Made by a program: the position numbers and the translations under genes
In this document: positions 2,267-43,995 of the stretch, piece after piece
Layout: each line of letters opens with the position of its first letter
Position numbering within the stretch: the stretch's first letter is position 1
The notes under the pieces: model-generated
The model's input: only the letters and a program-made list of their open reading frames with translations
Databases searched by the model: none
What the model was told of the DNA's origin: nothing
Source: a virus
Taxonomy: Duplodnaviria; Caudoviricetes
DNA: 57,103 nt
Direction: 5' to 3' (one strand)
Virus record (IMG/VR): IMGVR_UViG_3300042430_000603
Coordinates: 1-57,103 of that record

Positions 2267-5200
2267 ATGCCAACACCAATTAATACAGATCTCTATGATC
2301 GTATTATTCAGCACTTAGCTGATACAAGGTTATATGAGGCAGAGACATCTACAAATGTTTCAAGAGGTATCCGTAGACATCAAAAGAGACTTAGAGACTT
2401 ATTAAAAAATAATATCAAATCTGATGTTAAACCAGAAGTTACAAGAGCCACTAAAGAACTTCACATGATTGTGAATAATTCTGTTACTGATTATGCGGAT
2501 GCTGCTGTTAATTTTCATTCTAATAACTTAGATAAAAGTGCAGGTAAATTTTTTAGAGTTCAAAGACCTAGGGCTAGTGATGCTATTCCTAAACTAATTG
2601 GGCCTAATGTTACTGCATCTAAAACTTTAAGAGAACATTTTGATTCTATTGGTACTGCTGAACTAGCAAGGATAGATGGTAAAATCAAGGGTGGTTTAGC
2701 AGATGGTAAACCTATTAAAGAGATTATTAATGAAGTTATTAAAACTACTACACTAAGCGAAGTACAAGCTAAATCTCTTGTTAGAACTGCTATTACTAAC
2801 ACTCAATCTACTGCAATGAATCTTGTAATGAGTCGTAATGAAGAATTATTGATTGGTTATCGGTTTACTGCTGTACTAGATAATAGAACATCAGCAATTT
2901 GTGCTCACCATGATGGCGAAGTATATAAAATAAATGACATAAGATTTCGTCCACCATTACATTGGAATTGTCGTAGTTCAATGATCCCTATCTTAAAAAG
3001 TAAAGATCAATTACTAAGGTCTCTTGATGAAACTGCTGATACTAGACTTAAAGCTAATAAGCTAAAAGAAACTAATCCAGTTGAACTTAATGGTGCTCCT
3101 CCTCCTGTTGAAACATACAGTATTTGGCTTAAACGTCAACCTATGAATGTTCAAGTTAAACATTTAGGTAGCGAGGAAAAAGCAGGACTACTACAAAAAG
3201 GTGCATTAGATGTTAAGGCATTTACTACAACTAAAGGTAATCAACTAAGCATTGCTGCTTTAAGAAAATTAGATAATGCTCGTACACTATGGTTTCCAAC
3301 AAGGCAAACAGCTGTTAGCAAAGCAGAAGAAAATATATTTGAGCTTAATATATCTAGACCTAATGAATTGTTAAAGAATACAGAAGCACAGAGACAACTC
3401 AGAGAGATGTATATTGCTGATTCAGATAATCTAGCACAAGCTATATCCTTAACTGATTATAGAGGTACTACATTAGCAGGTAAGCGATCTGTCAGGATTC
3501 GGTCTAACAACGAGTTTGATGAACGTAATAATAGCTTTGATCCATTTACTGGTGAACAAAGTTCTACCTTGCTATATGATCCTGATTTTCTTACTTTACA
3601 AGAAAGACTTGACTTCGTTAGAAATTCTAAAGTTTTATCTCAAGATCAAAAAGTATGGATTAGGGATTTTGTAGAAACACTTGATGACTCTGTTTCTGTT
3701 AATCAGCAAACTGCTGTTACTGAGAATCTACGTGTTGTATTTGAACGATACAATAATGATAAACAACCTTGGGTTAATTTCATGAACGTTGTTCGTGGAG
3801 AGATGCAATACTCTGTAGTAAATACAAGTCGTATTTTAGATAGACGCTCTCGTGCTAGATCCTCTCAGTTTGATTCTTATGGAGTTGCAGGAGAACCAGC
3901 TAAAGTACAGATATTTGGAAAGTACTATACCTTTGATGACATCATAAACAACACATTAGATAATCAACGGTATAAGGATGCTTGGGCTGAAAGGCATGGT
4001 AGACCCTTAGCTCGTAAATTATTATACACTGGTAGAACACCATTGTATACTTGGTTTAGAGGTCCATTAACAAGAGACTCTAAATCATTTAGTAAGAAAT
4101 TAGAGACCTTTGTTAGAGAAGAAATTCCTGGTGGGGCATTATGGTTAGACCGTAATAAGCCTAAAGAAGGTCTTATAACAAAATATATTAGAGAAAAGAA
4201 AGAAGCTTGGAGAAGAATATTAGATCTCGAATTCTTGTATCGTGGTAATAAACAAAGTTATCTACAACAATATATTGAAGATAAAACAAACGATAAATTT
4301 ATTGTTGATTCTTTATCACGAGTTATGTCAGTTGTTGCTGATGGTAAATCTACTGACTATGATACACTTGCTATCAATATTGGTAAAGAATTAAGAGCTA
4401 ACTGGAAATTACCTAACTTCCCATTTTTTAAACCTACGCTAAAAGATTATCATGAAGACGGTTCTGAAATACTTACTGCATTAAAAGACTCTGGGTATAT
4501 CCGAGTTGTTAAACGTGGAAAGACTAGGCGCTCAGTAGTAGACTTAGAGACAGGTCGTGCCAGTGGTCCTTGGAGAGATACTGTTAGTCGTGAGGTGCAA
4601 ATCTTAGATAAAGATATGCTAGATTTACAAAGAATTAATCGAGCATTAATTGTAAGCCAACGAATTGGTATTATTAATGATAGAGATAAGATTTATGTTA
4701 GGCCAGGTGAGAAAACTTATTTTGATGCGAGAGGTAAAAATACAGGTATTACTGTTATTACCCGTAGAGCTAATGCTAACTATGATAAGTTATTAATTGA
4801 TAAAGATTTTGCTGATATGCTTAATCATACTATGTCATTTAAATATGAAGTTGATAATGAGTATGCTGGATTTATGGAAGATGTTGTACGCTTTAGAGAT
4901 CCTCGTGGTAACGTAAAGAAGTATGATGACTTAAATGATTTTAGAAAACTTATTTTAACTCGTGGTGATCAAGGCTATAGCTTTATGCAAACTGTAAAGT
5001 TTCATAGAGATACTGGAAAACCATTTAGCGTAGTTGCTAATATTGATGGTCGTGGACGTGTTTATTATCAAGGGTTTCTTACTCCTACTGGAGGTGAAGT
5101 TGTTCGTCCATTCTTAAACACTGCTAAGGCAGAAGCTGTTACACCTGAAATTGTTCAGGAGCTAATGATTCAAACTGGTTCTATGATAGGTCCAGCTACA

Positions 5201-6688
5201 GAGGCATTAACACAAGCAGGTAGAATGGAAATCTTTATGAGAAATCAAAAAGATATTTTAAGTCTTGGTAGGCTTATGAGAGAAACAACTCAACGTGATA
5301 GACGTATTCGAGAGTTCTTAGATCACCCTATTATTCGTTCTCAGGAAGCTGAAGAAATCCCAAAGATATCTAGGCTGGCTATTGAATATGCTAGAATATA
5401 TGATCATGTAAATGGTGACTTTACTGATTTAAAAAAGCTATCAACTTATAAAACAAAATTAATGATTGAGAATGATGCCTCATCCTCTGGTGCTCAAATC
5501 ATCGGATTGAGTACAGGCGATAGAGATATTTCAATTAACTCAAATGTGTTACCTACACTTCAAAAGAATCGTTTGTATGACTTAGTAGCAATGGATACAG
5601 TGTCTGATCCAGAGTTTCAAAAGATACAAGGATTAAGAGATGCTAATGTTCAATGGACTGATCTCCAAAAAGCCGCTAAGGCTCAGAACATGGTTTCTTT
5701 CTATGGCGCTGGTAAGGCAACACAGGCGGCTAATATTGAGGCTAAATTTGCTTCAGTATTAGAAACAAAAGGATATACTGTTGTTACCCGTGAAGAACTT
5801 CGTGGTGTAACTAATATTATAGATGCAAAGATCAAAGAAGCAGATAGGCTAGGTGCTGATAATGTTGTATTTGGTCTTAAACAATTAAAACGTGAGTTGA
5901 ATGAGGTTGTTGAAGGTGAAACCCCTGTGGGGCAGGAACTTTTATCACATGCTCGTGATTCTCACCCAGACGTAGAAGCGTTTGTCGATAAGTTAATGAA
6001 TGCTCGTAAAGGACTAATTGGTCCTCAAGACTTCAAATCTGTCTCTGAGATCATGTCTCGGAGATTAGCTGAGAGAGCACCAGTAACTCAAAAATTCGTA
6101 CAATTCTGGAAAGAGGCTGCTAAAGCTTACGTTGATGAAACTCAGAAGGTCGATGTACCTTGGGTAACATTTGATGGTAAGACTTTATACCAGAGATACA
6201 GACCTAAAATCCAAACTAGCATTGAGTTCTATGACAAAGAGGCTAATAGGATGGTCCGTAATATTTACGAAGATCGAGCAGAAGATGCTTCACTTCTAGG
6301 AAAATCAAGTTTAATGAGAGCAGGTATTGGTATGGGTGTTAATGGCAACCATATGAATGATGCCGCTATTGTAAGAAGATATCATTTATGGGGTCGTAAA
6401 AACGGTGTTGAAACCGCTACGATTCATGATGCTTTCTTCACAAACATCGGACAAGCAGCTAAGTCAAAGGTAGCTCTTAGAGAAATCTATGCAGATGCCT
6501 TAGAAGGTGATACAATAGAGAAAACTTTACTTGCTCTTAGAGAAGAAGGGTTGTCAAGAGCAACCTATAACTCTTTAAGACAAAAGGCTATTCAGGATGG
6601 CTTAATAAATCCTCGAAACAAGATTACGAGAAAAGATATACTGGCTCCTATACCTAAAGGTATGGATTGGTATGGTATTGGACCGTAA
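2267..6688 (+). CDS. MuF (SPP1 gp7 / Mu gpF) head morphogenesis domain fused to a T7-family single-subunit RNA polymerase; putative virion RNAP
   Basis: N-term MuF motifs LVRTA, AVLDNRTSAIC and PPLHWNCRS (aa ~170-237). C-term RNAP motifs DGRGRVYY (aa 927), motif A DASSSGAQ (D1070), motif B KAQNMVSFYG (K1138-Y1146), HMNDA and motif C IHDAF (D1388). AAGGAG RBS; one uninterrupted frame. Confidence 0.88.
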   Translation: MPTPINTDLYDRIIQHLADTRLYEAETSTNVSRGIRRHQKRLRDLLKNNIKSDVKPEVTRATKELHMIVNNSVTDYADAAVNFHSNNLDKSAGKFFRVQRPRASDAIPKLIGPNVTASKTLREHFDSIGTAELARIDGKIKGGLADGKPIKEIINEVIKTTTLSEVQAKSLVRTAITNTQSTAMNLVMSRNEELLIGYRFTAVLDNRTSAICAHHDGEVYKINDIRFRPPLHWNCRSSMIPILKSKDQLLRSLDETADTRLKANKLKETNPVELNGAPPPVETYSIWLKRQPMNVQVKHLGSEEKAGLLQKGALDVKAFTTTKGNQLSIAALRKLDNARTLWFPTRQTAVSKAEENIFELNISRPNELLKNTEAQRQLREMYIADSDNLAQAISLTDYRGTTLAGKRSVRIRSNNEFDERNNSFDPFTGEQSSTLLYDPDFLTLQERLDFVRNSKVLSQDQKVWIRDFVETLDDSVSVNQQTAVTENLRVVFERYNNDKQPWVNFMNVVRGEMQYSVVNTSRILDRRSRARSSQFDSYGVAGEPAKVQIFGKYYTFDDIINNTLDNQRYKDAWAERHGRPLARKLLYTGRTPLYTWFRGPLTRDSKSFSKKLETFVREEIPGGALWLDRNKPKEGLITKYIREKKEAWRRILDLEFLYRGNKQSYLQQYIEDKTNDKFIVDSLSRVMSVVADGKSTDYDTLAINIGKELRANWKLPNFPFFKPTLKDYHEDGSEILTALKDSGYIRVVKRGKTRRSVVDLETGRASGPWRDTVSREVQILDKDMLDLQRINRALIVSQRIGIINDRDKIYVRPGEKTYFDARGKNTGITVITRRANANYDKLLIDKDFADMLNHTMSFKYEVDNEYAGFMEDVVRFRDPRGNVKKYDDLNDFRKLILTRGDQGYSFMQTVKFHRDTGKPFSVVANIDGRGRVYYQGFLTPTGGEVVRPFLNTAKAEAVTPEIVQELMIQTGSMIGPATEALTQAGRMEIFMRNQKDILSLGRLMRETTQRDRRIREFLDHPIIRSQEAEEIPKISRLAIEYARIYDHVNGDFTDLKKLSTYKTKLMIENDASSSGAQIIGLSTGDRDISINSNVLPTLQKNRLYDLVAMDTVSDPEFQKIQGLRDANVQWTDLQKAAKAQNMVSFYGAGKATQAANIEAKFASVLETKGYTVVTREELRGVTNIIDAKIKEADRLGADNVVFGLKQLKRELNEVVEGETPVGQELLSHARDSHPDVEAFVDKLMNARKGLIGPQDFKSVSEIMSRRLAERAPVTQKFVQFWKEAAKAYVDETQKVDVPWVTFDGKTLYQRYRPKIQTSIEFYDKEANRMVRNIYEDRAEDASLLGKSSLMRAGIGMGVNGNHMNDAAIVRRYHLWGRKNGVETATIHDAFFTNIGQAAKSKVALREIYADALEGDTIEKTLLALREEGLSRATYNSLRQKAIQDGLINPRNKITRKDILAPIPKGMDWYGIGP

Positions 6689-6754: not shown

Positions 6755-7450
6755 ATGAAAGTAGATAAGTTCGGAAACAAAGAGTTCCTCGATGATAGCA
6801 ACACACCTAACCCAGAGTTTAAAATCGATGAGGTTGATACTGGTGGTGGAGGTGCTAACAATAAAGATACAGAAGACTTAATCAATCGAATGGTTGAAGA
6901 GCGTCTTTCTAAAATCAAACTAAGTTTAGATAAAGCTTACCAAGAACGTGACAATGCTGTTAAAGAGCGTGTTCGTCTTGAAGATGATGCTAAACAACGT
7001 AAGATGAAAGCTTTAGAGGATGAAGGTAAGCATAAAGAAGTTGCTGAGATGAAGCTCGCAGAACTCACTGAAAAGCTTGCGTTAGCCGAAGGTAAAGTAA
7101 CTGAACTCACCCGAGATGGTGCAGTTCGTAATGCATTAACTGGTCTTGATTTCCGTAATGACCGATCTGGCCAAATGGCTTATCGGGATATTATCGATCA
7201 ACTCATCCAAGATCCAGAGACTGGTGCATGGATTCACAAATCTGGTGTATCAATCAAGGATTTTGTAGGACAATATGTAAAGAATGAAGATAATTCTTTC
7301 CTATTTAAACCTAAATCTAATTCAGGGGGTGGTAGTAGCAATATGAACGGTACTCCCAAACTCGATCCCAATAAGAAGATATCTGAAATGACTACTGAGG
7401 AAGTGTTAGCACTTGCCGCAGGTGGAAAATTAGGTAGCTTCACCCTTTAA
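6755..7450 (+). CDS. Capsid scaffolding protein
   Basis: 231 aa, charged coiled-coil middle, FLFKPK...GGGS C-terminal motif, directly upstream of the capsid gene. Confidence 0.75.
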   Translation: MKVDKFGNKEFLDDSNTPNPEFKIDEVDTGGGGANNKDTEDLINRMVEERLSKIKLSLDKAYQERDNAVKERVRLEDDAKQRKMKALEDEGKHKEVAEMKLAELTEKLALAEGKVTELTRDGAVRNALTGLDFRNDRSGQMAYRDIIDQLIQDPETGAWIHKSGVSIKDFVGQYVKNEDNSFLFKPKSNSGGGSSNMNGTPKLDPNKKISEMTTEEVLALAAGGKLGSFTL

Positions 7451-7470: not shown

Positions 7471-8565
7471 ATGATTAATCATACAATGTTCCAAAACGTA
7501 GCTATTGCTATTTCTGCATATGCTGATGAAATGTACTCAAATGCCAAAAAGCTTAACAGCACTGGCATCGTTGGTACTGATGCCCGTATTGACCCAACAG
7601 GCGAAAGCTTTATTGGTCAAATGCGCTGGTACAAACCCCTAGCTGCCAACATTAACGTTGCTAGCTTATCCTCTGCCAATGCTGGTACTTACACTGATGT
7701 TTCTACAGAAATCGCTGACTACATCAAAACAGTACGTACATTTGGTTCTGAGCAAATCAACCTACAACAAATCGTTTCTCAACAAGACGGTCTTTCTAAA
7801 ATTGCTCGTGACTTCTCTGAAGTTCGTAGCCAAGACGAGTCTGACGCTATTGTTGCTACCCTCAAAGGCGTAGCCGCTTACGAAGTTTCTCGTGGTGCTG
7901 GTTTAGTCGGTTATGACACAGATGGCGATGGTGCTACTACTGGTAACTTCGTTGATATCAATGCTGCTGGTGTATTCGGTGCTGCCGCTGCTACCTCTGC
8001 TTCTGATCAGCGTAAGCTATTTGATGCTACAGCTATCGGTGCTGCTCGTGGTCAACGTCTATTCCAAGCTCTTGGCATGGCATTCAAAGACTATGAGCCA
8101 GACTTCATGTACATGGTTACTTCACCTGAAGTACTAGCTGAACTACGTGCTGCTAACTTAGTAGACGTAACTACAGTTACTGATGGTAACCTAACATTCC
8201 AAACAGTGTTCGGTGGTAAGTTCCGTCTATTACTCAGCCGTGTTGCTCAAGGTGACTTGTCTGCTTCTGCTAACGTAAATGATCGTTCTACAAAGACTAC
8301 ATTCATTTGCAAGCCAGGTGCTATCAGCTTTACAAACATTGCTGTTCCTACACCTGTTGAAGTTGATCGTAGTGCAGCTGCCTATACTGGCGGTGGTTCT
8401 ACTGCTATCTGGTATCGTTATGGCTTCGTAGTTCATCCAATGGGCTATGACTGGGCTGGCGCTACTAACGCTTTCGCTACTAACTCTGCTTATGGTACTG
8501 CTGGTTCATGGGCACGTAAAATGAATGCATTGAACTTAGGTATTCTACCTATTCTCCACGCTTAA
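7471..8565 (+). CDS. Major capsid protein
   Basis: 364 aa after the scaffold; strong AGGAGA RBS; strongly biased codons (all 16 Arg are CGY, no ATA Ile); VEVDR...GGG...RYGFVVHPMGYDW C-terminal motif. Confidence 0.85.
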   Translation: MINHTMFQNVAIAISAYADEMYSNAKKLNSTGIVGTDARIDPTGESFIGQMRWYKPLAANINVASLSSANAGTYTDVSTEIADYIKTVRTFGSEQINLQQIVSQQDGLSKIARDFSEVRSQDESDAIVATLKGVAAYEVSRGAGLVGYDTDGDGATTGNFVDINAAGVFGAAAATSASDQRKLFDATAIGAARGQRLFQALGMAFKDYEPDFMYMVTSPEVLAELRAANLVDVTTVTDGNLTFQTVFGGKFRLLLSRVAQGDLSASANVNDRSTKTTFICKPGAISFTNIAVPTPVEVDRSAAAYTGGGSTAIWYRYGFVVHPMGYDWAGATNAFATNSAYGTAGSWARKMNALNLGILPILHA

Positions 8566-10394: not shown

Positions 10395-10416
10395 TGGGCT
10401 AGTTTCTAGTCCATTT
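10395..10416 (+). terminator. Hairpin after the tail tube gene (weak terminator or 3' stabiliser)
   Basis: TGGGCTAG-TTT-CTAGTCCA, an 8-bp stem with one G-U, followed by only TTT. Confidence 0.45.
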
Positions 10417-10438
10417 ACCAGGGGACGCTAAAGAGAGA
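10416..10438 (+). promoter_or_regulatory. SP6/T7-like phage RNAP promoter, copy 1 (predicted +1 = G10433)
   Basis: TACCAGGGGACGCTAAA|GAGAGA; 10412-10440 is identical over 29 nt to 31284-31312; aligns to SP6 ATTTAGGTGACACTATA|G. Confidence 0.75.
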
Positions 10439-11764: not shown

Positions 11765-14700
11765 ATGTCAGTAGAAATTAAAGTCACGGCAGACACAAGA
11801 AAGGCATCCGAAGATATAGATAGACTACGTGGTCTACTAAAGAAAGTACAGGATGAAGCTGCAAAAGGCAGCAAGAAAACAAAAATCTTAGACGTTGATG
11901 CAGATCAACAAAAGATTAATGGAATAAATAAAAGCATACAAAATTTAAATGCAAAATTAAAACAATCACCAAGATATAAAGTATTTGATGAGAGATCCTT
12001 ATCAACTGCTATTTCCCAAACAGGACAAATTAATAAAAATATAGATAGCATAAACAGTTCTGCAACAAAATTAGGTAATACTTTAAAGTCAACATTTGCT
12101 GTTGCTGCAGTAGGAGTATTTGGTACTTCTTTATTAAAGACAGCCCAACAATTTGATGGTATTAGAACTAGGTTAGCTATCGCAACTGGATCTATTGTTA
12201 AATCACAAAAGGCATTTTCTGATATTCAGCAATTTGCCGCTGAAACAAAATTCAGTGTAGATGCATTAGCAGATTCCTATGCACGTCTCGCTAATACAGG
12301 TAGCACATTATTTTCTAGTAATAGACAAGTATTAGATAGCTTAGAAGGTATAGCTAATGCAGTTACTGCTGTAGGTGGCGGAGATTACGAAATCCAAAGA
12401 GTAACAGAAGCATTTTCAAGAATGGCATCTGAAGGTCGTGTAACATATGAGCGACTTGAACCTCTTGTTACCATTGGTATTCCACTACAAAGAATTGCTA
12501 AGGAAGCTGGTAAATCATGGGCTGAATGGTCAGCTACAATGGAAAGAGGCAATCTTACATTTGATGAAGTATTTAAGGCTTTTAATAAATTAGCCTTCTC
12601 TACACAAGGTTATGGTGGAGTTGCTAGGAAACAAGTTAATACACTATCAGGATCGTTCTCTAATTTAGGAGATGCAATAAAGAATCTTCAAGATGTAATT
12701 GTTAACAGTACTGGTTTGAAAACAGTTATTATTAATGTTGTTAACTCAATTACAAAGGGTATCCAAAAGCTTGCTAAATTTATTCAGTATGACTTAACAA
12801 CATCTATAATTGATTTTAAGATTTTTGTTTTAGGTCTCACTGGCTCTCTAAATATAGTTAACAGGTCAATTAATCAATTTGTACAAAATAGTAAGAAAAT
12901 AGATTTAAGTAATTTTGTACCAAATATTCCTGATTTTAAGTTAGATCTTGATTCTTATATGCCAAGGCTAAATACTGTTAAACAGAAAATTGATGACTTT
13001 GGAAAATTTGTTATTGCAGTATTCTATAAAATATGGAATGTAATTGTAGGTAATTCCTATTGGCCTGACACTATTATGGGTATTGCTAATTGGGCAAATA
13101 AGCTATACGGAATGGCAACTCCAGGAATAACTAAATTCTCAAGTTATGTAGTAGATGTATTTTCTGATATCAAAAATGCATTTGATATGTGGAAAGAGAA
13201 AATACAAATTGAAGTAAAAATTATTCAAGATGTTGGAGCATTAAAATATATTGAAAATTTATTTGATGATATTGTTGCTGCTATAAAAAGATTAGGTAAC
13301 TCTGGTTTAGAAGCCGCTGCTTCAGGTATTAACTACTCATTAGATCTAATTGGGGATAGCATAAAGAAACTAGCTCAGTTTTCTAAGTCTGGTGCTGGAA
13401 AAGTATTTAATGACTTCACAAATGCGATGACAAAGCTACTTGGTGTATTCTTACCAGGATTAGGAGAGATGCCACTATTAGCTGCTAAGTTACAAGCAGC
13501 ATTAGCTAAGATGGACGAATCACAATTTGATATATCTTTCCAAAATTTTAAACTAGATATTCAACAAAAGTTTAACAATATATCTACAAGAACATTAGAA
13601 CAAAACTTAGCTTTAGTTATTGAAAATACAGTAGAGCTATTCCAAAAAGGTATTGCAAATACTGATTTAGCTAAAACAGCATTTACAAGTTTAGGAGAAA
13701 CATTTGGGCGTATATCTGCTAGAGCTTTAAGAGATGATATTAAAACAACTTTTCAAGAAGATTTGCAGGATATAGTTATAGCTGCACTCTTAGTTGCATT
13801 TAATAAAGGATTCAGGCAAATTGCTGTTGCTACATTAATCTTTAAGATTGCTTTTGGAGAAGATGCTAGTTTTGTAGATGGTTTAAATACTCTTAAAAAG
13901 CATATTACAGACTTTGGTAACTCAATATTAAACGGATTAGGTCTTGAAGGCTTTGCTCCTAGCTCAGGTGGGTTTATTGTAGGCCTACTATTTGGTACAG
14001 CTGCATTAGCTATTGCCTCTGGTAAGATGACTTCCTTAATTGGAATAGTAGCAAAAGAGTTAGCAAATTATTTTATCTTATCAAAAATCTTTAATAAAGA
14101 CAATACAGGTGCTGCTACACCAGGAGCAAAAGCTGCTGGTAGTACATTAGGTAAAGTATTCCAAAGTGCATTTGCTGTTGCTGCTGGCCTTGCTGCTTTA
14201 TTTATTGGTTCCCATATTGGAGATGCAATTGCAGAATCATTAGATGTAGAAAATACATTTTATCATTTAGGTATTACTGCGGGTGCTATCTTTATGACAG
14301 GGTGGGCAATAAGTGCAGGTGCAGGTGCTTTTAGTGCTTGGGCAACTATTACGGCTGGCCCTGCAATTATACTAGCTCTTAAAAGATTAGCACTAGCTGC
14401 TGTATTCTCTGCTTCAATGTTTCCTGCAGGTGCAGCTGTTCTTTCTGCTATGGGTGGAATATTAGCTGCTATAACTGCATTCTTTACTTTACCCGTTTTA
14501 CTAGGTGCTTTAGGTATTGCTGCAGGTAGTTCATTACTCTATTACGCATTATTTGGTAATAAAGATGCAAAGGGTATTGAAGGAAAAATAACAAGATTAG
14601 CATACTTCCTTGGTGATAAATTTAAAGAAGTTTCATTCTTTATAGGTGATGCTTTTGGTGCAGTATTTGATTCTATAGGTAAAGGATTAAGAGACGCTGC

Positions 14701-17700
14701 TGACTATGTTGTTGGTAAGTTTAGTGACCTAAAGAATTTCTTTACAGAAAAATCATTTAGACCTGCAGGATCAACTCCTGTAAAACCAACAGTTACTGAA
14801 TTAAATCCACAACAAAGAAGAGCTAGTGGTGGACGTATTAGTGGCCCTGGTACAGGTAAATCAGACTCTATTATGGCTAGACTCTCTAATGGTGAGTTTG
14901 TAGTTAATGCTAAAGCAACCTCCGAGAATCTACCATTACTTCAAAAGTTAAATAGTGGCCTTCCAGGTTTTAATTCTGGTGGATTAATTGATTTAGATTT
15001 CTTAAGAAGAGAAGAAAATGGACCATCAGCATTACCAAAGACATATGGTTATGTGCCACCTAAAGGTGTATCGGGTGTAACTATTGCTACGGGTCTTGAT
15101 CTAGGGCAACAGAGTTTAACTAGCTTATCTGATATGGGTATTCCAAATAATTTGGTTACTAAGTTAAAACCTTATATTGGTAAGAAAAGAAAATCAGCTG
15201 TTAATGCATTACTTAATAAACCATTAAGCATTTCAGATGCTGAGGCTGCGTTAATAGAGCAAAGATCAGTTGATTACTATATCAATTTAACTAAAAATCA
15301 GTTCAAGAATATTTCATCAAGTGTTAATGGTCAATCCTTTGAATCATTGCCAAAACCAGTAAGAACTGCGTTAGTATCTACTTTATTCCAAACAGGAAAC
15401 ATTACTAGAGGAAATAGTAAATTAGCTGCTACTGCTGCTGCAAAAGGTGACTATAAACAGGCTGCACATTATTACGACGTGTGGGCTAAATACAGTGAAT
15501 ACAAAGGTAGAAGATCAAGAGAAGCTGATTTATTCCGTAATGCAATCTCTAATAAAATATTAGATGAGAACCAACAATTACCTAGTAAAGAAAAATTAGA
15601 TACAATTAAGAAAGATAATGAAAATATCTTTGATAGACTATTTAAAAGCTTTACAAGTGTATCTAGCAAAACAGATAATGTTTTACTAATGGATAAATTA
15701 CCTCAAGCCTCTAATAGTGAAATTGATGCATTACTTTCTAGATTACAAAATTCGGATATAGGTGGCGGTAATAATCTTAGTATAAGAAAAGATAAAATCC
15801 AATCTGCAATATCAAATAAAATTGGTAAACCAGCACTTATTGATGCAGGTGACCCAATGGCTTTATTACAGGAAGCCCAGTCTAAGTATAAAGCTAAAAC
15901 TATTATTGGTAGAATTTTAGGATTACCTAAATATGCAGAAGGTACTGAAGAACCTATTAACAGTCCTCCAGAAAATTATGGATTAAAGATTGCTGACTTT
16001 AAAGGTAATAACTTTATAACTAATAGAAATTTTGCAAAAGAGTTAACTCCTGGTGAACAACAAATAGTAAAATCGGCAGAATTAAATAAACAATTAATAA
16101 CTTATTTAAAGAATTCTGTTAAGGCTGATGTTTCAAATTATTTTGGAGAAAATCAAGATTATATTAGTACTAGCCAAGCCATATCTAAAGGTGCACTAGA
16201 GGGTGCAAGTTTTGATTTAGCGGGTGGTAAGCTAAGAGCAAAAGTATCTAAAAATGGTTTAAGGCTTAACTACACAAAAGCATTTGCAAATGGTGGTCAA
16301 ATAATTGGGGAAGGAACTGGTAAATCCGATTCTATTCTTGCTAGGTTATCTAATGGTGAATTCGTAGTTAATGCTAAGGCAACTAAAGAACATCTACCAC
16401 TACTACAATCAATGAACAGTGGAGTCTTGCCAGGATTTGCTGGTGGAACCAAGGGTCCAATTGGAGAAGTATTTTCTCAAATTGATCCTAAGAAACAGGT
16501 TCAAGAATTAACTGTTGGTAATGTTAAAGTAAAGCTTGATTTAACAGATTTTTTAAATACAATATCTGATATAAAAGATAGTAATTTATCACTATCTAAA
16601 AATACAGATGCTTTAGCAAAATCACTTAAATCCTCCCTAGCTACAATAGAAACAGCTGACTTTGTTACAAGACTAGGATTTAAAAATGCACCTATTGGTA
16701 CTTTAAAAGAATCTTTAGAAAAACCAGACGCTATTAAAGAATTAGAAGATTTTTACAATAATAAACTAAAACCTTCTGGATTTAATAGAGGGGTTAAAGG
16801 TCTTTCAAGTAGTGAGTTTACTACATTAAAAGAGTTAACACTAGCCTTAATACCTGAGACTAAAGACTTACAACCTAAAGATCTTGATACTCAATTAAAA
16901 TCAAAATTAAGTTCAAATAGTGATGTTACTAAAGTTATTGCAAATACTTTTAGACAACTGCGTGTATTGCAAGGTCAACAAGATCGAGGTGATGAGCAGG
17001 GCCCTATTGATGCCCAAGTTAAAGAAATTACGGATAGACTTAAAGGAGAGATAGTTAAAATTGCACCTGAAGTATCTACTAATATTAAAGGTGGTAACTT
17101 CTCAGCTAAATCTATTACTGAAGGAACTGAACAATCTAGAGCTTATATTGAAGATTTTAAATCTGGATTTTCTGAATTTCTTAAAGGTAAAAAGACAGGC
17201 AAAGAATTTGGTACTTACCTAGCAGACCAATTTACATCTCGAGTTGTTGATTCTTTTGCTAAAAGTTTAACAGATGAAATATTTAGTACTTCTAATTTCC
17301 TAGAATTGTTTGCCGCACCTACTGAATTTGGAACAAGGCTTGGTGGACTGATTGATAAACCAAAAGTTGAAGATGTACAAGCACCTCCTGTTGATGAAAG
17401 CTTATTTTCTCTTGGAGGTATAACTGGTTTACTAGGTGGTAATAAGGCTGGAACTTCTCCGCTAAAACCTTTATATACTAAAGAAGTACCAGGAGTAAAA
17501 GATTTAAATAGTCTTACTGGTGGTTCTTCTGGTGGAATATTTGGTAATCTATTTAGTGGTGCTAGCCAATTATTTAGCAAAGGTTTAACTTCTTTTGGTA
17601 GTTTATTTACTAGTGGTGGTAATATTGCATCAGTACTAGGTATGCCTGGCTTTGCAGATGGCGGTGTTATTCCAGGGGCTATGGGTAGTGCCACTCCAGT

Positions 17701-17902
17701 TCTTGCTCATGCAGGTGAGATTGTATTAAATGAAGCTCAACAAGCTAGAGTAGCAGCTGCTATGACAAATCAAAGTCAACAGGTAGTTAATGTAAATATC
17801 ACAGGTGATATTAGTCGTCAAACAAAATCAGAAATTTATAAAATGCTCCCATCTATTGCTGAGGGGGTTAACTCCCACAATAGAGAGAAAGGTTTAAGGT
17901 AA
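11765..17902 (+). CDS. Tape measure protein with an internal pesticin-like muramidase domain
   Basis: 2045 aa; N-terminal tape-measure domain (TLSGSFSNLGDAI); hydrophobic middle; repeated GG.I.G.GTGKSDSI.ARLSNGEFVVNAKAT; GYVP...SGVTIATGLDLGQ muramidase motif. Confidence 0.9.
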   Translation: MSVEIKVTADTRKASEDIDRLRGLLKKVQDEAAKGSKKTKILDVDADQQKINGINKSIQNLNAKLKQSPRYKVFDERSLSTAISQTGQINKNIDSINSSATKLGNTLKSTFAVAAVGVFGTSLLKTAQQFDGIRTRLAIATGSIVKSQKAFSDIQQFAAETKFSVDALADSYARLANTGSTLFSSNRQVLDSLEGIANAVTAVGGGDYEIQRVTEAFSRMASEGRVTYERLEPLVTIGIPLQRIAKEAGKSWAEWSATMERGNLTFDEVFKAFNKLAFSTQGYGGVARKQVNTLSGSFSNLGDAIKNLQDVIVNSTGLKTVIINVVNSITKGIQKLAKFIQYDLTTSIIDFKIFVLGLTGSLNIVNRSINQFVQNSKKIDLSNFVPNIPDFKLDLDSYMPRLNTVKQKIDDFGKFVIAVFYKIWNVIVGNSYWPDTIMGIANWANKLYGMATPGITKFSSYVVDVFSDIKNAFDMWKEKIQIEVKIIQDVGALKYIENLFDDIVAAIKRLGNSGLEAAASGINYSLDLIGDSIKKLAQFSKSGAGKVFNDFTNAMTKLLGVFLPGLGEMPLLAAKLQAALAKMDESQFDISFQNFKLDIQQKFNNISTRTLEQNLALVIENTVELFQKGIANTDLAKTAFTSLGETFGRISARALRDDIKTTFQEDLQDIVIAALLVAFNKGFRQIAVATLIFKIAFGEDASFVDGLNTLKKHITDFGNSILNGLGLEGFAPSSGGFIVGLLFGTAALAIASGKMTSLIGIVAKELANYFILSKIFNKDNTGAATPGAKAAGSTLGKVFQSAFAVAAGLAALFIGSHIGDAIAESLDVENTFYHLGITAGAIFMTGWAISAGAGAFSAWATITAGPAIILALKRLALAAVFSASMFPAGAAVLSAMGGILAAITAFFTLPVLLGALGIAAGSSLLYYALFGNKDAKGIEGKITRLAYFLGDKFKEVSFFIGDAFGAVFDSIGKGLRDAADYVVGKFSDLKNFFTEKSFRPAGSTPVKPTVTELNPQQRRASGGRISGPGTGKSDSIMARLSNGEFVVNAKATSENLPLLQKLNSGLPGFNSGGLIDLDFLRREENGPSALPKTYGYVPPKGVSGVTIATGLDLGQQSLTSLSDMGIPNNLVTKLKPYIGKKRKSAVNALLNKPLSISDAEAALIEQRSVDYYINLTKNQFKNISSSVNGQSFESLPKPVRTALVSTLFQTGNITRGNSKLAATAAAKGDYKQAAHYYDVWAKYSEYKGRRSREADLFRNAISNKILDENQQLPSKEKLDTIKKDNENIFDRLFKSFTSVSSKTDNVLLMDKLPQASNSEIDALLSRLQNSDIGGGNNLSIRKDKIQSAISNKIGKPALIDAGDPMALLQEAQSKYKAKTIIGRILGLPKYAEGTEEPINSPPENYGLKIADFKGNNFITNRNFAKELTPGEQQIVKSAELNKQLITYLKNSVKADVSNYFGENQDYISTSQAISKGALEGASFDLAGGKLRAKVSKNGLRLNYTKAFANGGQIIGEGTGKSDSILARLSNGEFVVNAKATKEHLPLLQSMNSGVLPGFAGGTKGPIGEVFSQIDPKKQVQELTVGNVKVKLDLTDFLNTISDIKDSNLSLSKNTDALAKSLKSSLATIETADFVTRLGFKNAPIGTLKESLEKPDAIKELEDFYNNKLKPSGFNRGVKGLSSSEFTTLKELTLALIPETKDLQPKDLDTQLKSKLSSNSDVTKVIANTFRQLRVLQGQQDRGDEQGPIDAQVKEITDRLKGEIVKIAPEVSTNIKGGNFSAKSITEGTEQSRAYIEDFKSGFSEFLKGKKTGKEFGTYLADQFTSRVVDSFAKSLTDEIFSTSNFLELFAAPTEFGTRLGGLIDKPKVEDVQAPPVDESLFSLGGITGLLGGNKAGTSPLKPLYTKEVPGVKDLNSLTGGSSGGIFGNLFSGASQLFSKGLTSFGSLFTSGGNIASVLGMPGFADGGVIPGAMGSATPVLAHAGEIVLNEAQQARVAAAMTNQSQQVVNVNITGDISRQTKSEIYKMLPSIAEGVNSHNREKGLR

Positions 17903-18506: not shown

Positions 18507-19099
18507 TTCAATTTAGTACAACAGTTAGAAATATACTGTCTCAACCAACTATTGAGGCATTTTATTTAGTTGAGGTATATGTGTCTTCAGGTACAACATA
18601 TCGATCAACTACATATTATAGGGATGTAGTTATAACAAATAATTCTGTACCAGTTACTACATATTATAATGATGGCAAACTAGTACAAGTTGACAGTCCA
18701 AGATTGTCTTCTACCGTAGATAGAGAGTTATTTAAAATAAGCTTTGCAGATCCTACATTTACATTTGGTGCAAGTGTAGATTCAGGTTTAATCGGCAAAC
18801 TTGTAGATGTTAAGGTAGGTTTTGTAAATCAAACTACTAAACTTCCTGAGCTAGATATTGCTAATCTATTAACTGTATATCGTGGAAAAATAGATAGTAC
18901 CGAATATAGTATAAATACTAGTGTTACAGGTGAAGTTTTATTAAATGTTAGTTGCTCTAGTCCTATGAATGATCTTGATTTAACTAAATCTTTTTACACA
19001 ACTAAAGATGCTACCTTTGGTAGAGATTCTTCTGATACCTCATTTGATCAAATCTATGAGGGATCAGGTGTGCTACAGCTTAAATGGGGGAAGAAATAA
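18503..19099 (+). CDS. Tail tip / minor tail protein
   Basis: 198 aa ending in LKWGK, with YRGKID; position between the distal tail and central fibre genes. Confidence 0.6.
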   Translation: MIQFSTTVRNILSQPTIEAFYLVEVYVSSGTTYRSTTYYRDVVITNNSVPVTTYYNDGKLVQVDSPRLSSTVDRELFKISFADPTFTFGASVDSGLIGKLVDVKVGFVNQTTKLPELDIANLLTVYRGKIDSTEYSINTSVTGEVLLNVSCSSPMNDLDLTKSFYTTKDATFGRDSSDTSFDQIYEGSGVLQLKWGKK

Positions 19100-22000
19100 T
19101 GGCTATAACAATTGTAGCAGGAGTAGTGCTTACTGCTCAGATGGCTATTACACTAGCCTCAATAGCTTATCAAATAATTCAAGCTAGAAAAATGAAGAAA
19201 GCTGCTCAGGCAGCTGCTGATGCAAGAAAAGGGTATGAGTTAGTTGTAGAAGGTGAAGGGGTTACACTTCCAGTAGTATATGGAAGAGCTAAAGTTGGTG
19301 GAGTTAGATCTTACCATAATACTTCTAATAACTTTGTTATAGCTACTCCTAATTCTGATAAAATATTTTTAACTCCAGGATTTGATACTAATGTAGAAGG
19401 TAGAGCAAACGAATTTTTATTTTTCCAGCAAGCAATGTGTCAAGGTCCAATTAATGGAGTCTATGACATTGTAGTAGATGAATCAAGATACTTAGATGAT
19501 CCTGATCTATCAACTACTCAAACAACAACTACAAGTACTAATACTGGAACTGAACAAGATCCAAACTATCAATATTTTACATCTAATACTGTTAAGTCAG
19601 GGCTTAGAGTTGATATCCATTACGGTGATTTGCCAGTGGCTGATTCTGTGATGTCTGCAAATAATCCAGAAAGAGTAAGCTCAGTATTTACGCAGATTAA
19701 AGATCAAGTTGGATTGGCTTATGCTTCTGTCTGTATTAAACTAGATAGAGATGATCCAGCACTTAATGGTGTACCCACTTTACAATTTTTCCTTGAAGGT
19801 AAAAAAGTCAAAGATATTACTAGAGCTGGTAGTGTAGGCAGTTATACCTATTCAGTAGCCACAACTAGATCTTATTCTAATAATCCAGCATTATGTTTGC
19901 TAGATTATTTATTAGACGATACTGCTGGAAAAGGATTAGATACTAGTTTAATTGATTTAGAATCATTCTATAATGCTAAATTAATTTGTAATACTACTGT
20001 GTTACCAAATGCATCTATAGGTGGAAAGATATACAAGCCAACATTTAACCCTTTAGGTGCTGAAGGAGTTACTACAGGTAATACTAGAGCTATTAGACTC
20101 TATGAATGTAATGCAATTATTGATACACAGAAGCCATTAAGAGAAAATGTTGAATCTATCTTGTCAACAATGGGTGACGCAAGACTTATTTGGTCTGGTG
20201 GTAAATATAAATTAAGTTTACAATATCCAACAAGTAATAGTAATATTGTAGTTGCAAATACATTAACAGATGATGATTTAGTTATTGATGATAATGTAAG
20301 TATTAATTGGCCTAGCTCAAGTGAAAGATTAAACTTTTGTACAGTAAGATTTCATAATGAATCTGAAAACTTTAAGGAAGATACAGTATCTTGGCCTCCA
20401 AAAGAATCTGGTGTTTCATTAAGGGGTGTGGGCGGATTTAAATACCCAGACTCTGTAGATGATGCTTGGGATGATAGTGTAGGTGGTGTTTTGCTTAAGA
20501 AATATTCCGTATGGTCGAGCACTGCAAGTTCTTTTGATCAAACATGGAAATTCTTTGTAAAAGAAACAGGTTCATATACATTTGAATTTACAGGAGATAA
20601 TTCTGCAACTGCTTCTATAGCTACTACTACGGGTACAGTACTATACTCAGGCTCTGCTACAGATTGGAAAGCTATTACCACAGGTACAGTAAGCTTAACT
20701 AAGGATACTGAATACAGAATTAGACTAACTGCTCAGGATTCTGGTGGAAGTGGAAAAGGAATTGCTGGAAAATTATCTAAAGGTTCATTTGTACATTGGA
20801 CTACTAGATCTGATAATTACACTAGCCTAGTATCTATTAATAATAATAATGCAGTTTATACTGCTATGAAACTAGAAGATAATGATTTAGACTTAGAGAC
20901 TGATATATTTGCTGATGGTATTACAGACTATTACCATGCATTAGCTAAAGCAGAAGAACTTGTAAGAACAAGTAGGACAGCATTTGGAATAAGATTTAAA
21001 TATGTAATTAAAGATAAGTTCTTAGAGCCAGGTGATTTTATTAAGTTATCTAGTCAAACACTTAAACTAGGTGTTGATATTGATTTATATTTAAGAGTTA
21101 ATGAAGTAAAAATTACGGATGAAGCAGTATGTGAAGTAAATGCTACTAGGTTTGATTATACACAATTGGCATGGAATGTAGATGATAACGAGTATATCAA
21201 AGCAATTAATGTTTACTCCTTTGAATTTGGTAAACCCTCTAATTTAATTTACATAGCACAAACAGCTCAAATTTTAAATTCTTCAGGAAGATTAGAATGG
21301 ACTAAAGTACCTGATGAATCTCAACTAGATTGTTATATCACATACTATCATTTCCCTGGTAATGTTACAGGCGGAGGAGAGGTGATCTGGACTGAATTAG
21401 GTCGTACAACAGATACTCAATATATATTACCTCCATTAACGTTAGATCAAACAATATTTGGTGTAAGAGCAATAAGTAAGGGTGGTAAACTATCTGATAT
21501 TGCTGTAACTAATGTAGTCTCACCAATTTTTGCTACTGCATTCTCAGGTAAATCAGTTAAATTAAAGGCTAGTGGAAGAGCTTTTGTGAAGCAAGCTAAT
21601 AGTAGCGTAGTTGCTCCAACAGCAATTTTATTTTCAGTAAATGTAACTGGATTTGATGCTCCTACTTATAAATGGTATATTAACGAGGTTTTACAAGCTG
21701 GCCAAACATCAGCTACATTTAGTGTACCTAGTTTTATTGATGTCCCAACTAAAGATATTAAAGTTAGAGTAACTGAAGGAATAACTACTACATTCTTAGA
21801 GGACTTTGAAACAGTCTATTATATTAATGCAGGTTCTGACTCTTATGCTATCGGTTTATCTGAAGCAGCCTTAAATTTAACTTGTGATTCAAATGGAGTA
21901 CCAGAAGCAGGCCAGTTACCTCAATCTATAAATATTGATGTTTATAAAGGAGCTACTCCTGTTACAGAAGGTATCGTATATACATTAAATCCAGTTGGTT

Positions 22001-24571: not shown

Positions 24572-24925
24572 ATGGCATATGGAATGAGAACATATAATGA
24601 GTCTGGTGGAATAGAATTTGATTCTACTAGTTACGGTGGAATACCTATTGGTATGTTAGACCTTTCAACAAGTGCAATTTCTAGTAACCCAACTATAATC
24701 ACTTATCCACAACATGTGGGTAGAAGACTAACAGTTGTACCTTTAATTTCTGGGGACTATTTATATAAGGTTTTTGGACCTTGGGATGGTCCTGGAACTC
24801 CTGGAGCTACTATTGGTAACTACCCACAACTTAGTTATTGGTCCGTTAACCCAGACTTTTCTCCTACTATTGCAACCCATGGTTTTGAAAAGAAGCCAAC
24901 TAAAATATTGGTACTACTAAAATGA
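24572..24925 (+). CDS. Small tail-associated protein
   Basis: MAYGMRTYNESG.IEFDS N-terminus, paralogous to the start of the next ORF; AGGAG RBS. Confidence 0.6.
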   Translation: MAYGMRTYNESGGIEFDSTSYGGIPIGMLDLSTSAISSNPTIITYPQHVGRRLTVVPLISGDYLYKVFGPWDGPGTPGATIGNYPQLSYWSVNPDFSPTIATHGFEKKPTKILVLLK

Positions 24926-27900
24926 GTTATGGTTTTAAATTTTTTAATGATTCTTCTGAATTAGTTATTGACAATGAAATTGTAAAACCCTGGTTTGTCG
25001 GAAGGGCTAGTTTTGCTGCTGCAGAAATATCCTCTGAGATTCCAGCGTTTTCTTATACACATGGTGATAATGTTACCAGAAATTATTCTGTTTATCGTAT
25101 TACATATAGTCCTCCAAATGTAACTAATGGAGTATTTTATATTTCATTGCCATCTGATACTATATATAACAAAGCTTATAATGTAACAAATCCATTTTAT
25201 TCAGGTAATCAAAGTATTTACATATATGCAGCAGTAAATACAAATTATCTCCCAGTACCAGATGATATCCCTGAAGTATATTGTTTCAGTCTCGGGCAGA
25301 TAACAACTGCAGGTTCTGGTTATGGTGCTAGATTATTCAATAGTTCTGATCAATGTGTATTTGACACAACAAAGTCACATCTAAAAATAGAGCCAATAAG
25401 TAGTATTAATTTTGATGCTTTTGTACAACCTAATGGTGGACAAGAATATATTATACCCGCTGTAGACTATCCTGCATATTTCTTACCAAATTTAGATGTT
25501 AATAAATTAACTTATTTAGATAGTTCATACTTTAAAAGAGAAAGGTATTTATCCTTTTTTAATCAAAGTGGTGGTTACCTATCTTCTTGGATGCCTAGGA
25601 TAACTGAAGAAGTTAAATCTGGAAACTTAGGATTTACTGGATCTAGATTTTTTAATGCTTCAACTAGATCTAGTTCAATTAAAAGTATATTACCTGATAG
25701 TATAGATCATAATCCATTATATATTAATGCTCTAACTCATTCTCCAGGCTATATTGGAGGAACATTTCCAGCTGCAAGTTATACTTTAATTTTAAGTACT
25801 AATACAGCTCAAGAACAAGAGGGAAATCTCGCTGTTATTCAGTGCGATGTAACCACTGTTAATGTTCCTACTGGCAGACAATTAAGATATACTCTGTCTG
25901 GCACTGGCGTAACTGCTTCAGATTTTAATGATGGATTAACAGGAACTTTCACAATAAGTAATAGTACGTCTAGATTTTTTCTTGTAGTTTCATCTGATAA
26001 TATATTTGAGCAAACAGAAACAGTTACTGTAACAATTACAAATATTGATGGAACTGCTCTAGTTGGTACAGCACAGCAATTTAGTCTTAAAAATACAAAG
26101 TTTTATAACTTGTCAACGTTTCCAGCAAATGTAACAAGCATTAATGAAGGTGAATATGTTGCGGTTACATTAAATACTTTAGAGAGTTCAACTTCTCCTA
26201 GAGTAGTAAACTATACACTCTCTCAGGTACCTAGCTCAGTAGGGGCCACGGATCAACCCTTTGATGCTAACGATTGGCTAGATACTGTTACACTAGGTAG
26301 TGGGGCTACTGTAGTTGCTAATAGATTTACACTCCCTGCCAATACTACTACCCCTGGTGCATCAATAGTCTTTAGAGCCAAAAATGATTTTAGAGTAGAT
26401 GGCCCTAAAAAATTAAGACTAAGTATTGATGATAATCCAGCTATATTTGTTGAATTTACTGTTAATGATACTTCATTAGAGTATAGTTGGTCTATATCAG
26501 GTCCAAACACTATTAACGAAGGTATTGAGTATACATATGATGTAACTACATCAGCTCCAACTGGTACTAGGGCAATTATTGGATTAACAGCTATTACAGG
26601 TGCATCTGAGGATGATATTGCTCAGATTAATGGAATAAATTATGTTTCAGGTGATACATATTATGTTAATACTACGAGTGGTTTAGGTTCTTTTACTCTT
26701 AAATTTAAAGCAGATTTAAAGACCGAGGGAGATGAATCTTTTACAATATTTTTAGATAAAGATATGCCAATACCGAGAACTAGATTAGCAGATCTTGGTT
26801 TTAATGTTTCTTTAAAAGATACTTCACTTACTCCTATTAATTGGTCATTTAGTAAAGTAACTGGTAATCCAACTACTGCTTTAGTACGAGAAGGTACTAA
26901 TATGGTTGTTAGAATTCAGAGTACTAATGTACCCACTTATCCTTATACAATTTATTATCGAATTGCCCCTGGTAATGGCACTCTTGATACTGATACTAAC
27001 TTTACAACAGGTTCAGTAATAGCTTTTAATGTTACATCAGTAGATCAGCAAGTATTGTTTCAAATAAAAGAAGATAATATTACAGAAGGTACAGAGACCT
27101 TTCAAATAACTTTTTATAGAGATGCTGCTGGTACTGATATTATTACTGGGTTAGAATGGCAAATTATAGATGCTATTTCTGTAGAGAGAAGTTTAGGTTT
27201 TGTAGTAGAAGGTCAAACTCAAACTCTCACGATAAAGCCTAATTACCTAAGCTATCCTTATACTGTTTATGGAGAAATAACTGGAGGAAATGCTAATTTA
27301 ACTAGTGCAGATTTTATTAGTGGCACTCTATTAACAGAGACAGTATTAAATAATGATAATCCAGTTACATTAACTTTTACTGGTGTAGAAGACTATACTG
27401 TAGAAGGTTTATTTGGAGAAGTTGTATTCTTTGATATGTATTCTGATCCAGCAAGAACTGTACCTATTGGTAATTCTATATCTTGGACAATGGGAGATCC
27501 TCAGTATGTTTTCTCGAGATCTTTTGCTTCTGTAAATGAGGGTTCAAATCAAGTTATTACTATCAGTACAAACGCAGTATTACCAAAAATATTGTACGGT
27601 AAAATGACTGGTACAAACATTACTTCTTCAGACTTTAGCTCTCCACCTAACTCTACAACATTTGAGTGGAACATAACTGCTACTGGACAAACTATTGGTT
27701 TAACAATGGCTCCAGATTTAACTACAGAAACTAATCCTGAATTAGTAACTCTAACTTTTTATCATGATACTTCATTTACTAACCAAGCAGGAAATACAGT
27801 AACATGGGATATAGCGGATACTTCTAAAACACCACCACCTTCCTGGTCTTTCGTAAGAGATCCAAATACAGCTACTGTAGATGAAGGTGTATCTGTGACT

Positions 27901-31266: not shown

Positions 31267-31287
31267 ATGAATTAAAATTATTACATT

Positions 31288-31310
31288 TACCAGGGGACGC
31301 TAAAGAGAGA
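31288..31310 (+). promoter_or_regulatory. SP6/T7-like phage RNAP promoter, copy 2 (predicted +1 = G31305)
   Basis: TACCAGGGGACGCTAAA|GAGAGA, identical to copy 1; intergenic. Confidence 0.75.
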
Positions 31311-31352
31311 TCCTAGGCGTCCCCTAGGTAATATTATTATAAGATATTATTA

Positions 31353-42743: not shown

Positions 42744-42750
42744 GTAAACA

Positions 42751-43994: not shown

Positions 43995-43995
43995 T

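Follow-up and report, generated by a model that had tools for sequence, protein, structure and literature searches.

We analysed a virus record of IMG/VR (IMGVR_UViG_3300042430_000603; 57,103 bp, linear, 35% G+C), which in its full length we call the window, and found in it a gene whose product joins a MuF minor head protein to a T7-type RNA polymerase (RNAP). Judging from its sequence and its predicted structure, the RNAP part is complete and apparently active. We consider it probable that this MuF-RNAP protein is the early RNAP of the phage and is delivered by the virion. It would then set off a relay that passes through a promoter-like element (class E), a second, free RNAP, and a further promoter-like motif (class L). 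The packaging, ejection and activity of the protein, and the assignment of each polymerase to its promoters, are what we infer from the analyses given below.

The protein of 1473 amino acids (aa) is encoded in one unbroken reading frame between the portal and scaffold genes. Pfam profiles matched both ends of it: Phage_Mu_F (PF04233) at aa 136-239 (E = 4.5e-12, 47.1 bits for a cut-off of 29.6) and RNA_pol (PF00940) at aa 1054-1424 (E = 3.1e-6, 26.7 bits for a cut-off of 22). The same two domains scored 52.1 and 28.6 bits, respectively, in a six-frame search of the window. Among the PHROGs, phrog_241 ('head morphogenesis') matched aa 3-339 (E = 2.4e-52) and phrog_414 ('RNA polymerase') matched aa 907-1160 (E = 1.3e-22). 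An initial annotation, made from the letters of the sequence, had described an uninterrupted frame of this length in the canonical MuF slot, with MuF motifs at the N-terminus. The open reading frame (ORF) call and the gene order given by PHROGs and Pfam bear out the position, and both collections recognise the N-terminal part as MuF, the sole one in the window. Together with a structure predicted by AlphaFold2 (AF2), these searches divide the gene as follows:

2267-6688, + strand: MuF-RNAP fusion gene, a single open frame with an AAGGAG ribosome-binding site upstream
2267-3286, + strand: MuF (SPP1 gp7-like) minor head domain, aa 1-340, from PF04233 (aa 136-239) and phrog_241 (aa 3-339)
3287-4246, + strand: middle helical domain, aa 341-660, from the AF2 model, with a flexible stretch near aa 600-660
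4247-6685, + strand: T7-type single-subunit RNAP, about aa 661-1473, from the AF2 model, Foldseek and the family profile, with a conserved DWYGIGP at the C-terminus

When the fusion protein was searched with phmmer against the sequences of the PDB, it matched T7 RNAP (E = 1.6e-5), its DGRGRVY aligning to T7 DWRGRVY (421-427) and its IHD region to T7 IHD (810-812). A profile built from 40 members of the family matched T7 RNAP with E = 1.7e-17, aligning motif A to T7 FDGSCSGIQ, and also matched the yeast mitochondrial RNAP (8e-11) and N4 RNAPII (8.6e-6). With this profile no chain of the N4 virion RNAP (vRNAP) was matched in the PDB at E ≤ 0.01. The AF2 model of aa 341-1473, built on the family alignment, had a mean predicted local distance difference test (pLDDT) of 83 and a predicted template modelling score (pTM) of 0.76. 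Foldseek comparison of this model with the PDB placed T7 RNAP chains first (E = 7.7e-20 to 1e-18, probability 1.0), with 900-1070 aligned columns, template modelling scores (TM) by target of 0.46-0.58 and ~14% identity. Mitochondrial RNAPs came after them, and 74 matches in all had E ≤ 0.001. In the BFVD the best match was a 1463-aa orthologue from Naomviridae (52% identity, TM by query 0.90), followed by T7-like phage RNAPs (E = 1e-22 to 1e-15) and then by pieces of N4-like vRNAPs (E = 1e-13 and weaker). The confidence profile and the secondary structure of the model suggest that the RNAP spans about aa 661-1473.

We examined the active site in an alignment of 33 sequences, ranging from 91% to 20% identity, one of which (P0138) is truncated inside motif B. 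The key positions are:

5045-5065, + strand: DGRGRVY motif, aa 927-933, aligned to T7 RNAP 421-427 in HMMER alignments; R931 in 33/33
5474-5476, + strand: motif A catalytic Asp, D1070 (T7 D537), in 33/33; aligned to T7 FDGSCSGIQ
5678-5704, + strand: motif B, K1138 to Y1146 (T7 K631 to Y639); K1138 in 33/33, Y1146 and G1147 in 32/33
6428-6430, + strand: motif C catalytic Asp, D1388 (T7 D812), in 32/33; aligned to T7 IHDSF

The truncated P0138 is the sole exception to the conservation of Y1146, G1147, D1365 and D1388. Position 1387 is His in 27 sequences and Tyr in five, and H1362, aligned to T7 H784, is nearly invariant. The position of T7 R627, assigned by its spacing from K1138, is occupied by Q1134, and among the 33 sequences it is R in three and K in one. 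The adjoining position 1135 is K in 32 sequences and R in the remaining one, and this basic residue may stand in for T7 R627. Conservation is highest in the catalytic part, with a median identity of 46% across 32 homologues, versus 35% for MuF. The fused RNAP also contains a stretch aligning to T7 residues 716-851, the part of T7 RNAP that includes the specificity loop. The family consensus places DWYGIGP at the extreme C-terminus. Since catalysis by T7 RNAP needs a free C-terminus, the anchor of a tethered enzyme of this type would be expected at the N-terminus.

These results agree in most respects with what the initial annotation had read in the C-terminal part. It had taken this part for a complete T7-family RNAP, and the Foldseek run that it had proposed gives T7 RNAP as the top match; in the family alignment the active site is intact. 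The T7 motifs that it had listed in order are all at the residues it named (DGRGRVYY at 927-934, D1070, K1138-x7-Y1146 and IHD at 1386-1388), and the Gln that it had noted in place of the Arg equivalent to T7 R627 was confirmed by spacing as Q1134, at a position that varies in the family. Its partition of the protein has to be changed, because it treated aa 340-850 as one part whereas the AF2 model shows a separate domain at ~341-660 and an RNAP starting near aa 661.

Motif B is a site of insertions in some relatives. In EBPR siphovirus 1 (locus L004, 8181-9030) the gene stops after the equivalent of aa 1143, and homology picks up again at aa 1144, beyond an HNH endonuclease gene. In the relative G006 (locus L042, 3164-3518, - strand) homology breaks between aa 1142 and 1143, and Rfam identified a group I intron (103 bits, E = 1.5e-25). 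This match is full-length and lies mostly in the 940-nt gap, overlapping ~58 nt of the exon-1 alignment. Many database fragments end or start at the same point of motif B (aa 1142-1144). Insertion of introns or HNH genes in these codons is what would be expected at a highly conserved and indispensable catalytic sequence.

The MuF part is conserved as well. Twelve core residues are invariant in the 33 aligned sequences (T174, T177, N191, L204, D205, T208, C212, P230, H232, C235, R236 and S237), and the six most distant homologues tested (1401-1545 aa) all passed the Pfam cut-off for MuF. The window has exactly one MuF match, within the fused gene, and two RNAP genes. We found the same in all five complete relatives (four records at CheckV 100% and phage DSS3_VP1), where the single MuF match lies within a fused frame of 1472-1572 aa and is accompanied by two RNAP genes. 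As the fusion is the sole MuF in the window and in these five relatives, the fused protein must provide the role of MuF in the head. The middle domain was less easily placed. AF2 modelled aa 341-680 with a mean pLDDT of 78, and aa ~360-530 mostly above 90, and a Foldseek search of the PDB with the middle domain model gave no match at E ≤ 0.001 among 317, while the ESM Atlas gave no usable match. The middle domain (aa 341-660) is also found behind MuF in a few proteins, possibly incomplete, that do not continue into an RNAP.

The fusion is rare among sequenced phages and widespread in metagenomic collections. A tblastn search of 50,697 phage records gave full-length matches in only four: two copies of the DSS3_VP1 record, DSS3_PM1 (47.9% identity for both phages), and EBPR siphovirus 1 (31.5%, in pieces). 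DSS3_VP1 and DSS3_PM1 are cultured roseophages with deoxyuridine-containing DNA (dU-DNA), and their orthologues are annotated 'minor head protein-like protein' or 'head morphogenesis'. In a large protein collection we identified 446 clusters (90% identity) that matched aa 850-1473 at E ≤ 0.001. Among the best 120 of these 446, 115 are 1392-1602 aa long and have the MuF Pfam domain, 97 of the 115 also having a precomputed PF00940 match, and the remaining five are pieces of 817-1180 aa. An exhaustive HMMER search with aa 341-1473 against 1.84 billion representatives retrieved only 140 clusters at 50% identity. In their full-length members the match begins ~330 residues or more into the protein, and none of the matches in this search was a full-length member of the RNAP clade devoid of an N-terminal extension. 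The small number of clusters and the N-terminal offset show that the RNAP clade is distinct. A search for the same architecture in phage databases, suggested at the outset, thus recovered it in cultured roseophages and in hundreds of clusters. We could also rule out an assembly artefact, because cultured isolates share this frame with hundreds of independent contigs.

The window encodes another T7-like RNAP, which the initial annotation did not include. This free RNAP shares 50% identity with the enzyme annotated as RNA polymerase in DSS3_VP1. Free and fused RNAP are only 21-23% identical in their two best BLASTP alignments, which rules out that the fused RNAP is a recent duplicate of the free one. 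Upstream of the free RNAP gene lies the class E element:

44086-44104, + strand: terminator-like hairpin and T-run closing the preceding gene block, found by a scan and conserved together with class E in relatives
44119-44151, + strand: class E bipartite element, AAGTGAGAAAA-N7-ATCTATAATGAAGAA, 2.2 kb upstream of the free RNAP gene
46358-48538, + strand: free T7-like RNAP, 726 aa (PF00940, E = 1.7e-79)

Class E occurs once in the window (0 expected by chance), directly after the terminator-like hairpin and ahead of the small ORFs that lead to the free RNAP. The exact 25-mer is present in 16 related loci. A variant shifted by one base is found in a group with a free RNAP ~92% identical to that of the window, and further variants in loci with a free RNAP of 48-60% identity. 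In DSS3_VP1 the element is present twice (at ~35.79 and 36.24 kb), after a terminator and upstream of the small ORFs leading to the RNAP gene of that phage. We scanned IMG/VR and 596 Gb of bacterial genomes for the 20 specified bases of the element and found them in 113 IMG/VR stretches, versus four in the bacterial genomes. One of these four is a misbinned phage contig, and we read the other three, which lack the downstream continuation GAAGAA, as chance matches. Among the 80 viral loci that we took, 42 contain a homologue of the free RNAP (37-92% identical to that of the window), and it is downstream of class E on the same strand in all 42. When the viral locus had at least 5 kb of room, the free RNAP was found in 20 of 21 cases.

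Class E contains a perfect TATAAT, and its upstream box is 13 nt away, too close for a sigma-70 -35 element. A sigma-70 scan of 43900-51300 gave no signal (32 sites versus 33.8 expected). The invariance of the element in phages with strongly diverged proteins points to a reader that is itself encoded by the phage.

Class L is found at three places:

10414-10433, + strand: class L motif TTTACCAGGGGACGCTAAAG, copy 1, within the tail gene block
31286-31305, + strand: class L motif, copy 2, with an inverted repeat formed by its bases 31293-31300 and by 31317-31324
48540-48559, + strand: class L motif, copy 3, with one mismatch, 2 nt after the free RNAP stop codon

These three matches compare with none in 100 shuffles, and the sites precede middle and late genes (replication and structural). 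In 18 of the 20 loci L005-L024 the motif stands at the same place after the stop codon of the free RNAP, and in the other two it is found 0.7-1.1 kb farther downstream; all 12 of the loci that are more distant lack it. A related motif, RATAGGKKRCGYTAAAG, occurs at least 11 times in DSS3_VP1. Copies 1 and 2 are inside an inverted repeat that is followed by an AT-rich run, and may double as terminators.

The fusion gene is part of a head module, which has the same gene order in DSS3_VP1 (portal, fusion, scaffold, major head protein):

355-1995, + strand: portal gene (phrog_145, E = 2e-58; Pfam DUF4055, E = 4.6e-9), the expected docking partner of the MuF domain
6755-7450, + strand: scaffold gene (phrog_206, E = 9e-9)
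7471-8565, + strand: major head protein gene (phrog_247, E = 1e-26)

A PhoH fragment and a head-tail adaptor gene are the other neighbours of the fusion in this module. All ORFs of at least 90 aa accepted as genes are on the + strand of the window. They include a tape measure gene (11765-17902, 2045 aa), which matched tape-measure families only, and tail fibre genes, and these genes together indicate a long-tailed phage.

The scheme that we favour starts from gp7 of phage SPP1, a protein of which the portal brings a few copies into the procapsid interior and which supports the initiation of infection, as described in the available text of PMC6316719. By homology to gp7, the MuF domain, made late with the head genes, would dock on the portal and bring a few copies of the whole protein into the procapsid. 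The C-terminal two thirds would be an active, promoter-specific T7-type RNAP. Upon infection the fused protein would exit the capsid with the DNA and transcribe the early block from class E at 44119-44151. This block ends in the gene of the free T7-like RNAP (46358-48538), which would then read class L (10414, 31286, 48540) before the replication and structural genes. Such a relay is the simplest reading of the layout, because class E precedes the free RNAP gene and the only other RNAP is late-encoded and head-anchored. The idea of delivery is also helped indirectly by the presence of a second, free RNAP and of an ultra-conserved element upstream of its gene, an arrangement that would suit a pre-made polymerase.

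Several observations weigh against this scheme. The record is only ~78% complete, and the position of T7 R627 is not basic in most members of the family. Class E was assigned to the fused RNAP by elimination only. Comparison of the specificity loops with those of DSS3_VP1 revealed about equal change in the two enzymes, with 42 of 70 positions shared for the fused RNAP and 39 of 69 for the free one. The class E core (≤2 mismatches) is absent from both distant fusion phages (G004 and EBPR siphovirus 1), and also from both phages that have a free RNAP and an unfused MuF (Kolga and G010); in G011 we found no match to the fusion protein. The absence of class E from both kinds of phage means that its presence does not track the fusion cleanly. 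Delivery would require a protein of 165 kDa to travel through a long non-contractile tail, and we know of no MuF protein that does so. In the literature we found no direct demonstration that SPP1 gp7 is ejected, and gp7 is described as dispensable for assembly in the available text of PMC6316719. The main text of the DSS3_VP1/Naomviridae paper has no mention of 'RNA polymerase', 'RNAP' or 'MuF'. The RNA data consisted of one freshwater metatranscriptome (contigs) with 0.06 of the sampled words. It gave ten patchy pieces on 43900-48700 (four at 95-99% identity, one at 90-95%, five below 90% and none at ≥99%), with uninformative starts and ends, and is neutral as to the transcription of this phage.

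Some of these points leave room for other readings. The protein could be packaged and ejected as proposed, with the promoters swapped: the host or the free RNAP would read class E, and the fused RNAP would read class L, or would be mainly a motor that pulls the genome in, or a primer-maker for replication. We regard this as unlikely, although the perfect TATAAT of class E speaks for it and the specificity loops did not discriminate between the two assignments. The single orientation of the genes also fits it, since read-through from one promoter could reach everything, and a motor has a precedent in T7 RNAP, which helps to internalise the T7 genome. However, class E lacks a -35 element at the spacing that sigma-70 requires, and its 20 specified bases are identical across phages with strongly different proteins (113 viral versus four bacterial stretches). 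The position of class L before replication and structural genes is likewise the one expected for a polymerase made during infection.

It is somewhat less likely still that the fused protein is not delivered at all, and that its MuF part assembles heads while the RNAP acts only in the producing cell, for example as a late polymerase, the copies in the capsid being incidental. The location of the gene in the late structural block would fit such a role, as would the dispensability of gp7 for assembly, and ejection is only inferred. Yet the free RNAP, with its own widespread class of promoters, would already serve the middle and late genes, and the fusion has been kept from 20% to 95% identity, with no unfused full-length version of the RNAP clade among the matches. 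The N-terminal offset of ~330 residues or more was filled by MuF in all six distant homologues tested, and attaching a soluble enzyme to the portal would carry a high cost if delivery were unimportant. The idea that the RNAP domain is catalytically dead, and no more than a DNA-binding or structural 'pilot' module, we consider very improbable: the modest Pfam score of 26.7 bits and the Gln at the T7 R627 position could be cited for it, but all catalytic residues tested are invariant in the family, conservation peaks in the catalytic half, and an invariant basic residue at 1135 stands beside the R627 position. Delivery of the MuF-RNAP by the virion followed by the relay through class E and class L remains the reading that we prefer.

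The fused enzyme resembles the T7 RNAP of Autographiviridae in fold, in motifs A, B and C, in the DxRGR motif and in the region aligned to the specificity loop. The layouts of class E and class L are similar to those of T7/SP6-type promoters. T7 RNAP is a free enzyme, made early from promoters read by the host and not packaged, and its promoters are 23 bp long.

Other known systems share parts of the proposed arrangement. Proteins like gp7 carry C-terminal toxins, according to the accessible parts of two studies (PMC6316719, PMC5512222). These MuF-toxin or MuF-effector proteins, among them polyvalent and polymorphic-toxin MuF proteins, resemble the fusion in their layout, in which MuF at the N-terminus directs a payload at the C-terminus into the capsid, with delivery proposed when infection begins; they differ in that the payload here is an RNAP for the phage's own gene expression and not a toxin or a host-modifying enzyme. 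The available text of the survey of polyvalent proteins (PMC5512222) does not list the MuF-RNAP architecture. Our literature search, which covered few subscription journals and did not extend to supplements, found no description of a MuF-RNAP fusion, in keeping with the initial annotation, to which none was known. The paper on the dU-DNA enzyme contains none of the terms 'RNA polymerase', 'RNAP' and 'transcription'.

The relay in coliphage N4 (Schitoviridae) is a close parallel for the proposed order of transcription. N4 makes a T7-family RNAP late, carries it in the capsid and uses it for early genes that include a second phage RNAP, as reported in the portions available of PMC4496689, PMC13434306 and PMC5512222. 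The phage of the window likewise has a late-encoded T7-family RNAP and a second phage RNAP downstream of a putative early promoter, here known from genome layout. The N4 enzyme, gp50, has ~3500 aa, its own N- and C-terminal regions for injection and encapsidation, and no MuF, and belongs to a podovirus. In contrast, the fusion has 1473 aa and a MuF anchor, belongs to a siphovirus, and is closer in fold and profile to T7-like RNAPs than to the N4 vRNAP. The early promoters of N4-like phages are DNA hairpins, whereas class E in the window has no inverted repeat; in some relatives (with a free RNAP 48% identical) a short palindrome lies immediately upstream of the conserved core. Modules of the N4-like vRNAP are confined to N4-like phages, according to the available text of PMC5512222. 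Size, architecture and similarity ranking rule out that the fused enzyme is a member of the N4 vRNAP family.

In the Thermus phage P23-45 a virion RNAP has been described that is joined to a structural protein, the tape measure; it transcribes pre-early genes, among them the one for an RNAP that is not part of the virion (PMC10770324, available text). P23-45 is also a siphovirus, and shares with our case the fusion of an RNAP to a structural protein and a second, non-virion RNAP (PMC10770324). Its RNAP is a two-barrel enzyme on the tape measure, whereas the one described here is a right-hand T7-type enzyme on a portal-associated head protein.

The window has further features outside the proposed relay. 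Auxiliary metabolic genes at 41570-43994 form a pigment pathway in a phage of 35% G+C: they encode a heme oxygenase (42791-43327), a ferredoxin-dependent bilin reductase (43308-43994) and two 2OG-Fe(II) oxygenases. A gene of the dCMP-deaminase family (54789-55202) is 36% identical to the deaminase of DSS3_VP1, which acts as a dCTP deaminase for dU-DNA according to the available text of PMC12697855. Two ORFs are very large: one at 24922-31266 (2114 aa) has no PHROG match and about six internal repeats with a period of ~330-690 nt, and another at 19084-24555 (1823 aa) has one weak PHROG match only. The tail fibre gene at 32281-35001 has a long Ala/Ser/Thr-rich region (32500-34620) with a 21-nt periodicity and many overlapping families of repeats. 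An intergenic tandem pair of 24-nt elements (AGAGAGACC..GGGTA.GTAC), 38 nt apart, lies at 45187-45248, before a small ORF at 45275. Two adjacent tRNA genes (Met-CAT and Arg-TCT; 49168-49319) follow a terminator-like hairpin at 49140-49159.

Virion-borne RNAPs are known in few groups of phages (N4-like, crAss-like, phiKZ/AR9-like and P23-45), and each of them revealed a new route of protein delivery and independence from host transcription. The MuF-RNAP, if delivered as we propose, would add a further and structurally different solution, in which an ordinary T7-type enzyme is hitched to MuF, a protein hitherto known as a toxin carrier. More tentatively, since our doubts here are slightly larger than our confidence, we suggest that this may hold for a large and globally distributed clade of long-tailed phages, which takes in the cultured Naomviridae with their dU-DNA and over 100 viral contigs that differ widely in G+C. 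Such phages would be independent of the host RNAP from the start of infection, through a portal-anchored MuF-RNAP threaded through the tail, a near-invariant bipartite promoter and a second phage RNAP. Members of this clade abound in aquatic metagenomes, and the cultured ones, DSS3_VP1 and DSS3_PM1, which grow on Ruegeria pomeroyi, make these proposals testable at the bench.

The finding would correct the annotation of hundreds of entries now called 'minor head protein' or 'head morphogenesis protein'. If the scheme is true, biotechnology would also gain a compact new pair of RNAP and promoter, as well as a means of loading capsids with foreign cargo. It may also be the packaged enzyme that enables the dU-DNA members to have uracil-containing promoters read, for which phages of the PBS2/AR9 type offer a comparison. 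The MuF anchor would then be a general handle for the delivery of cargo, used in these phages for their own transcription machinery.

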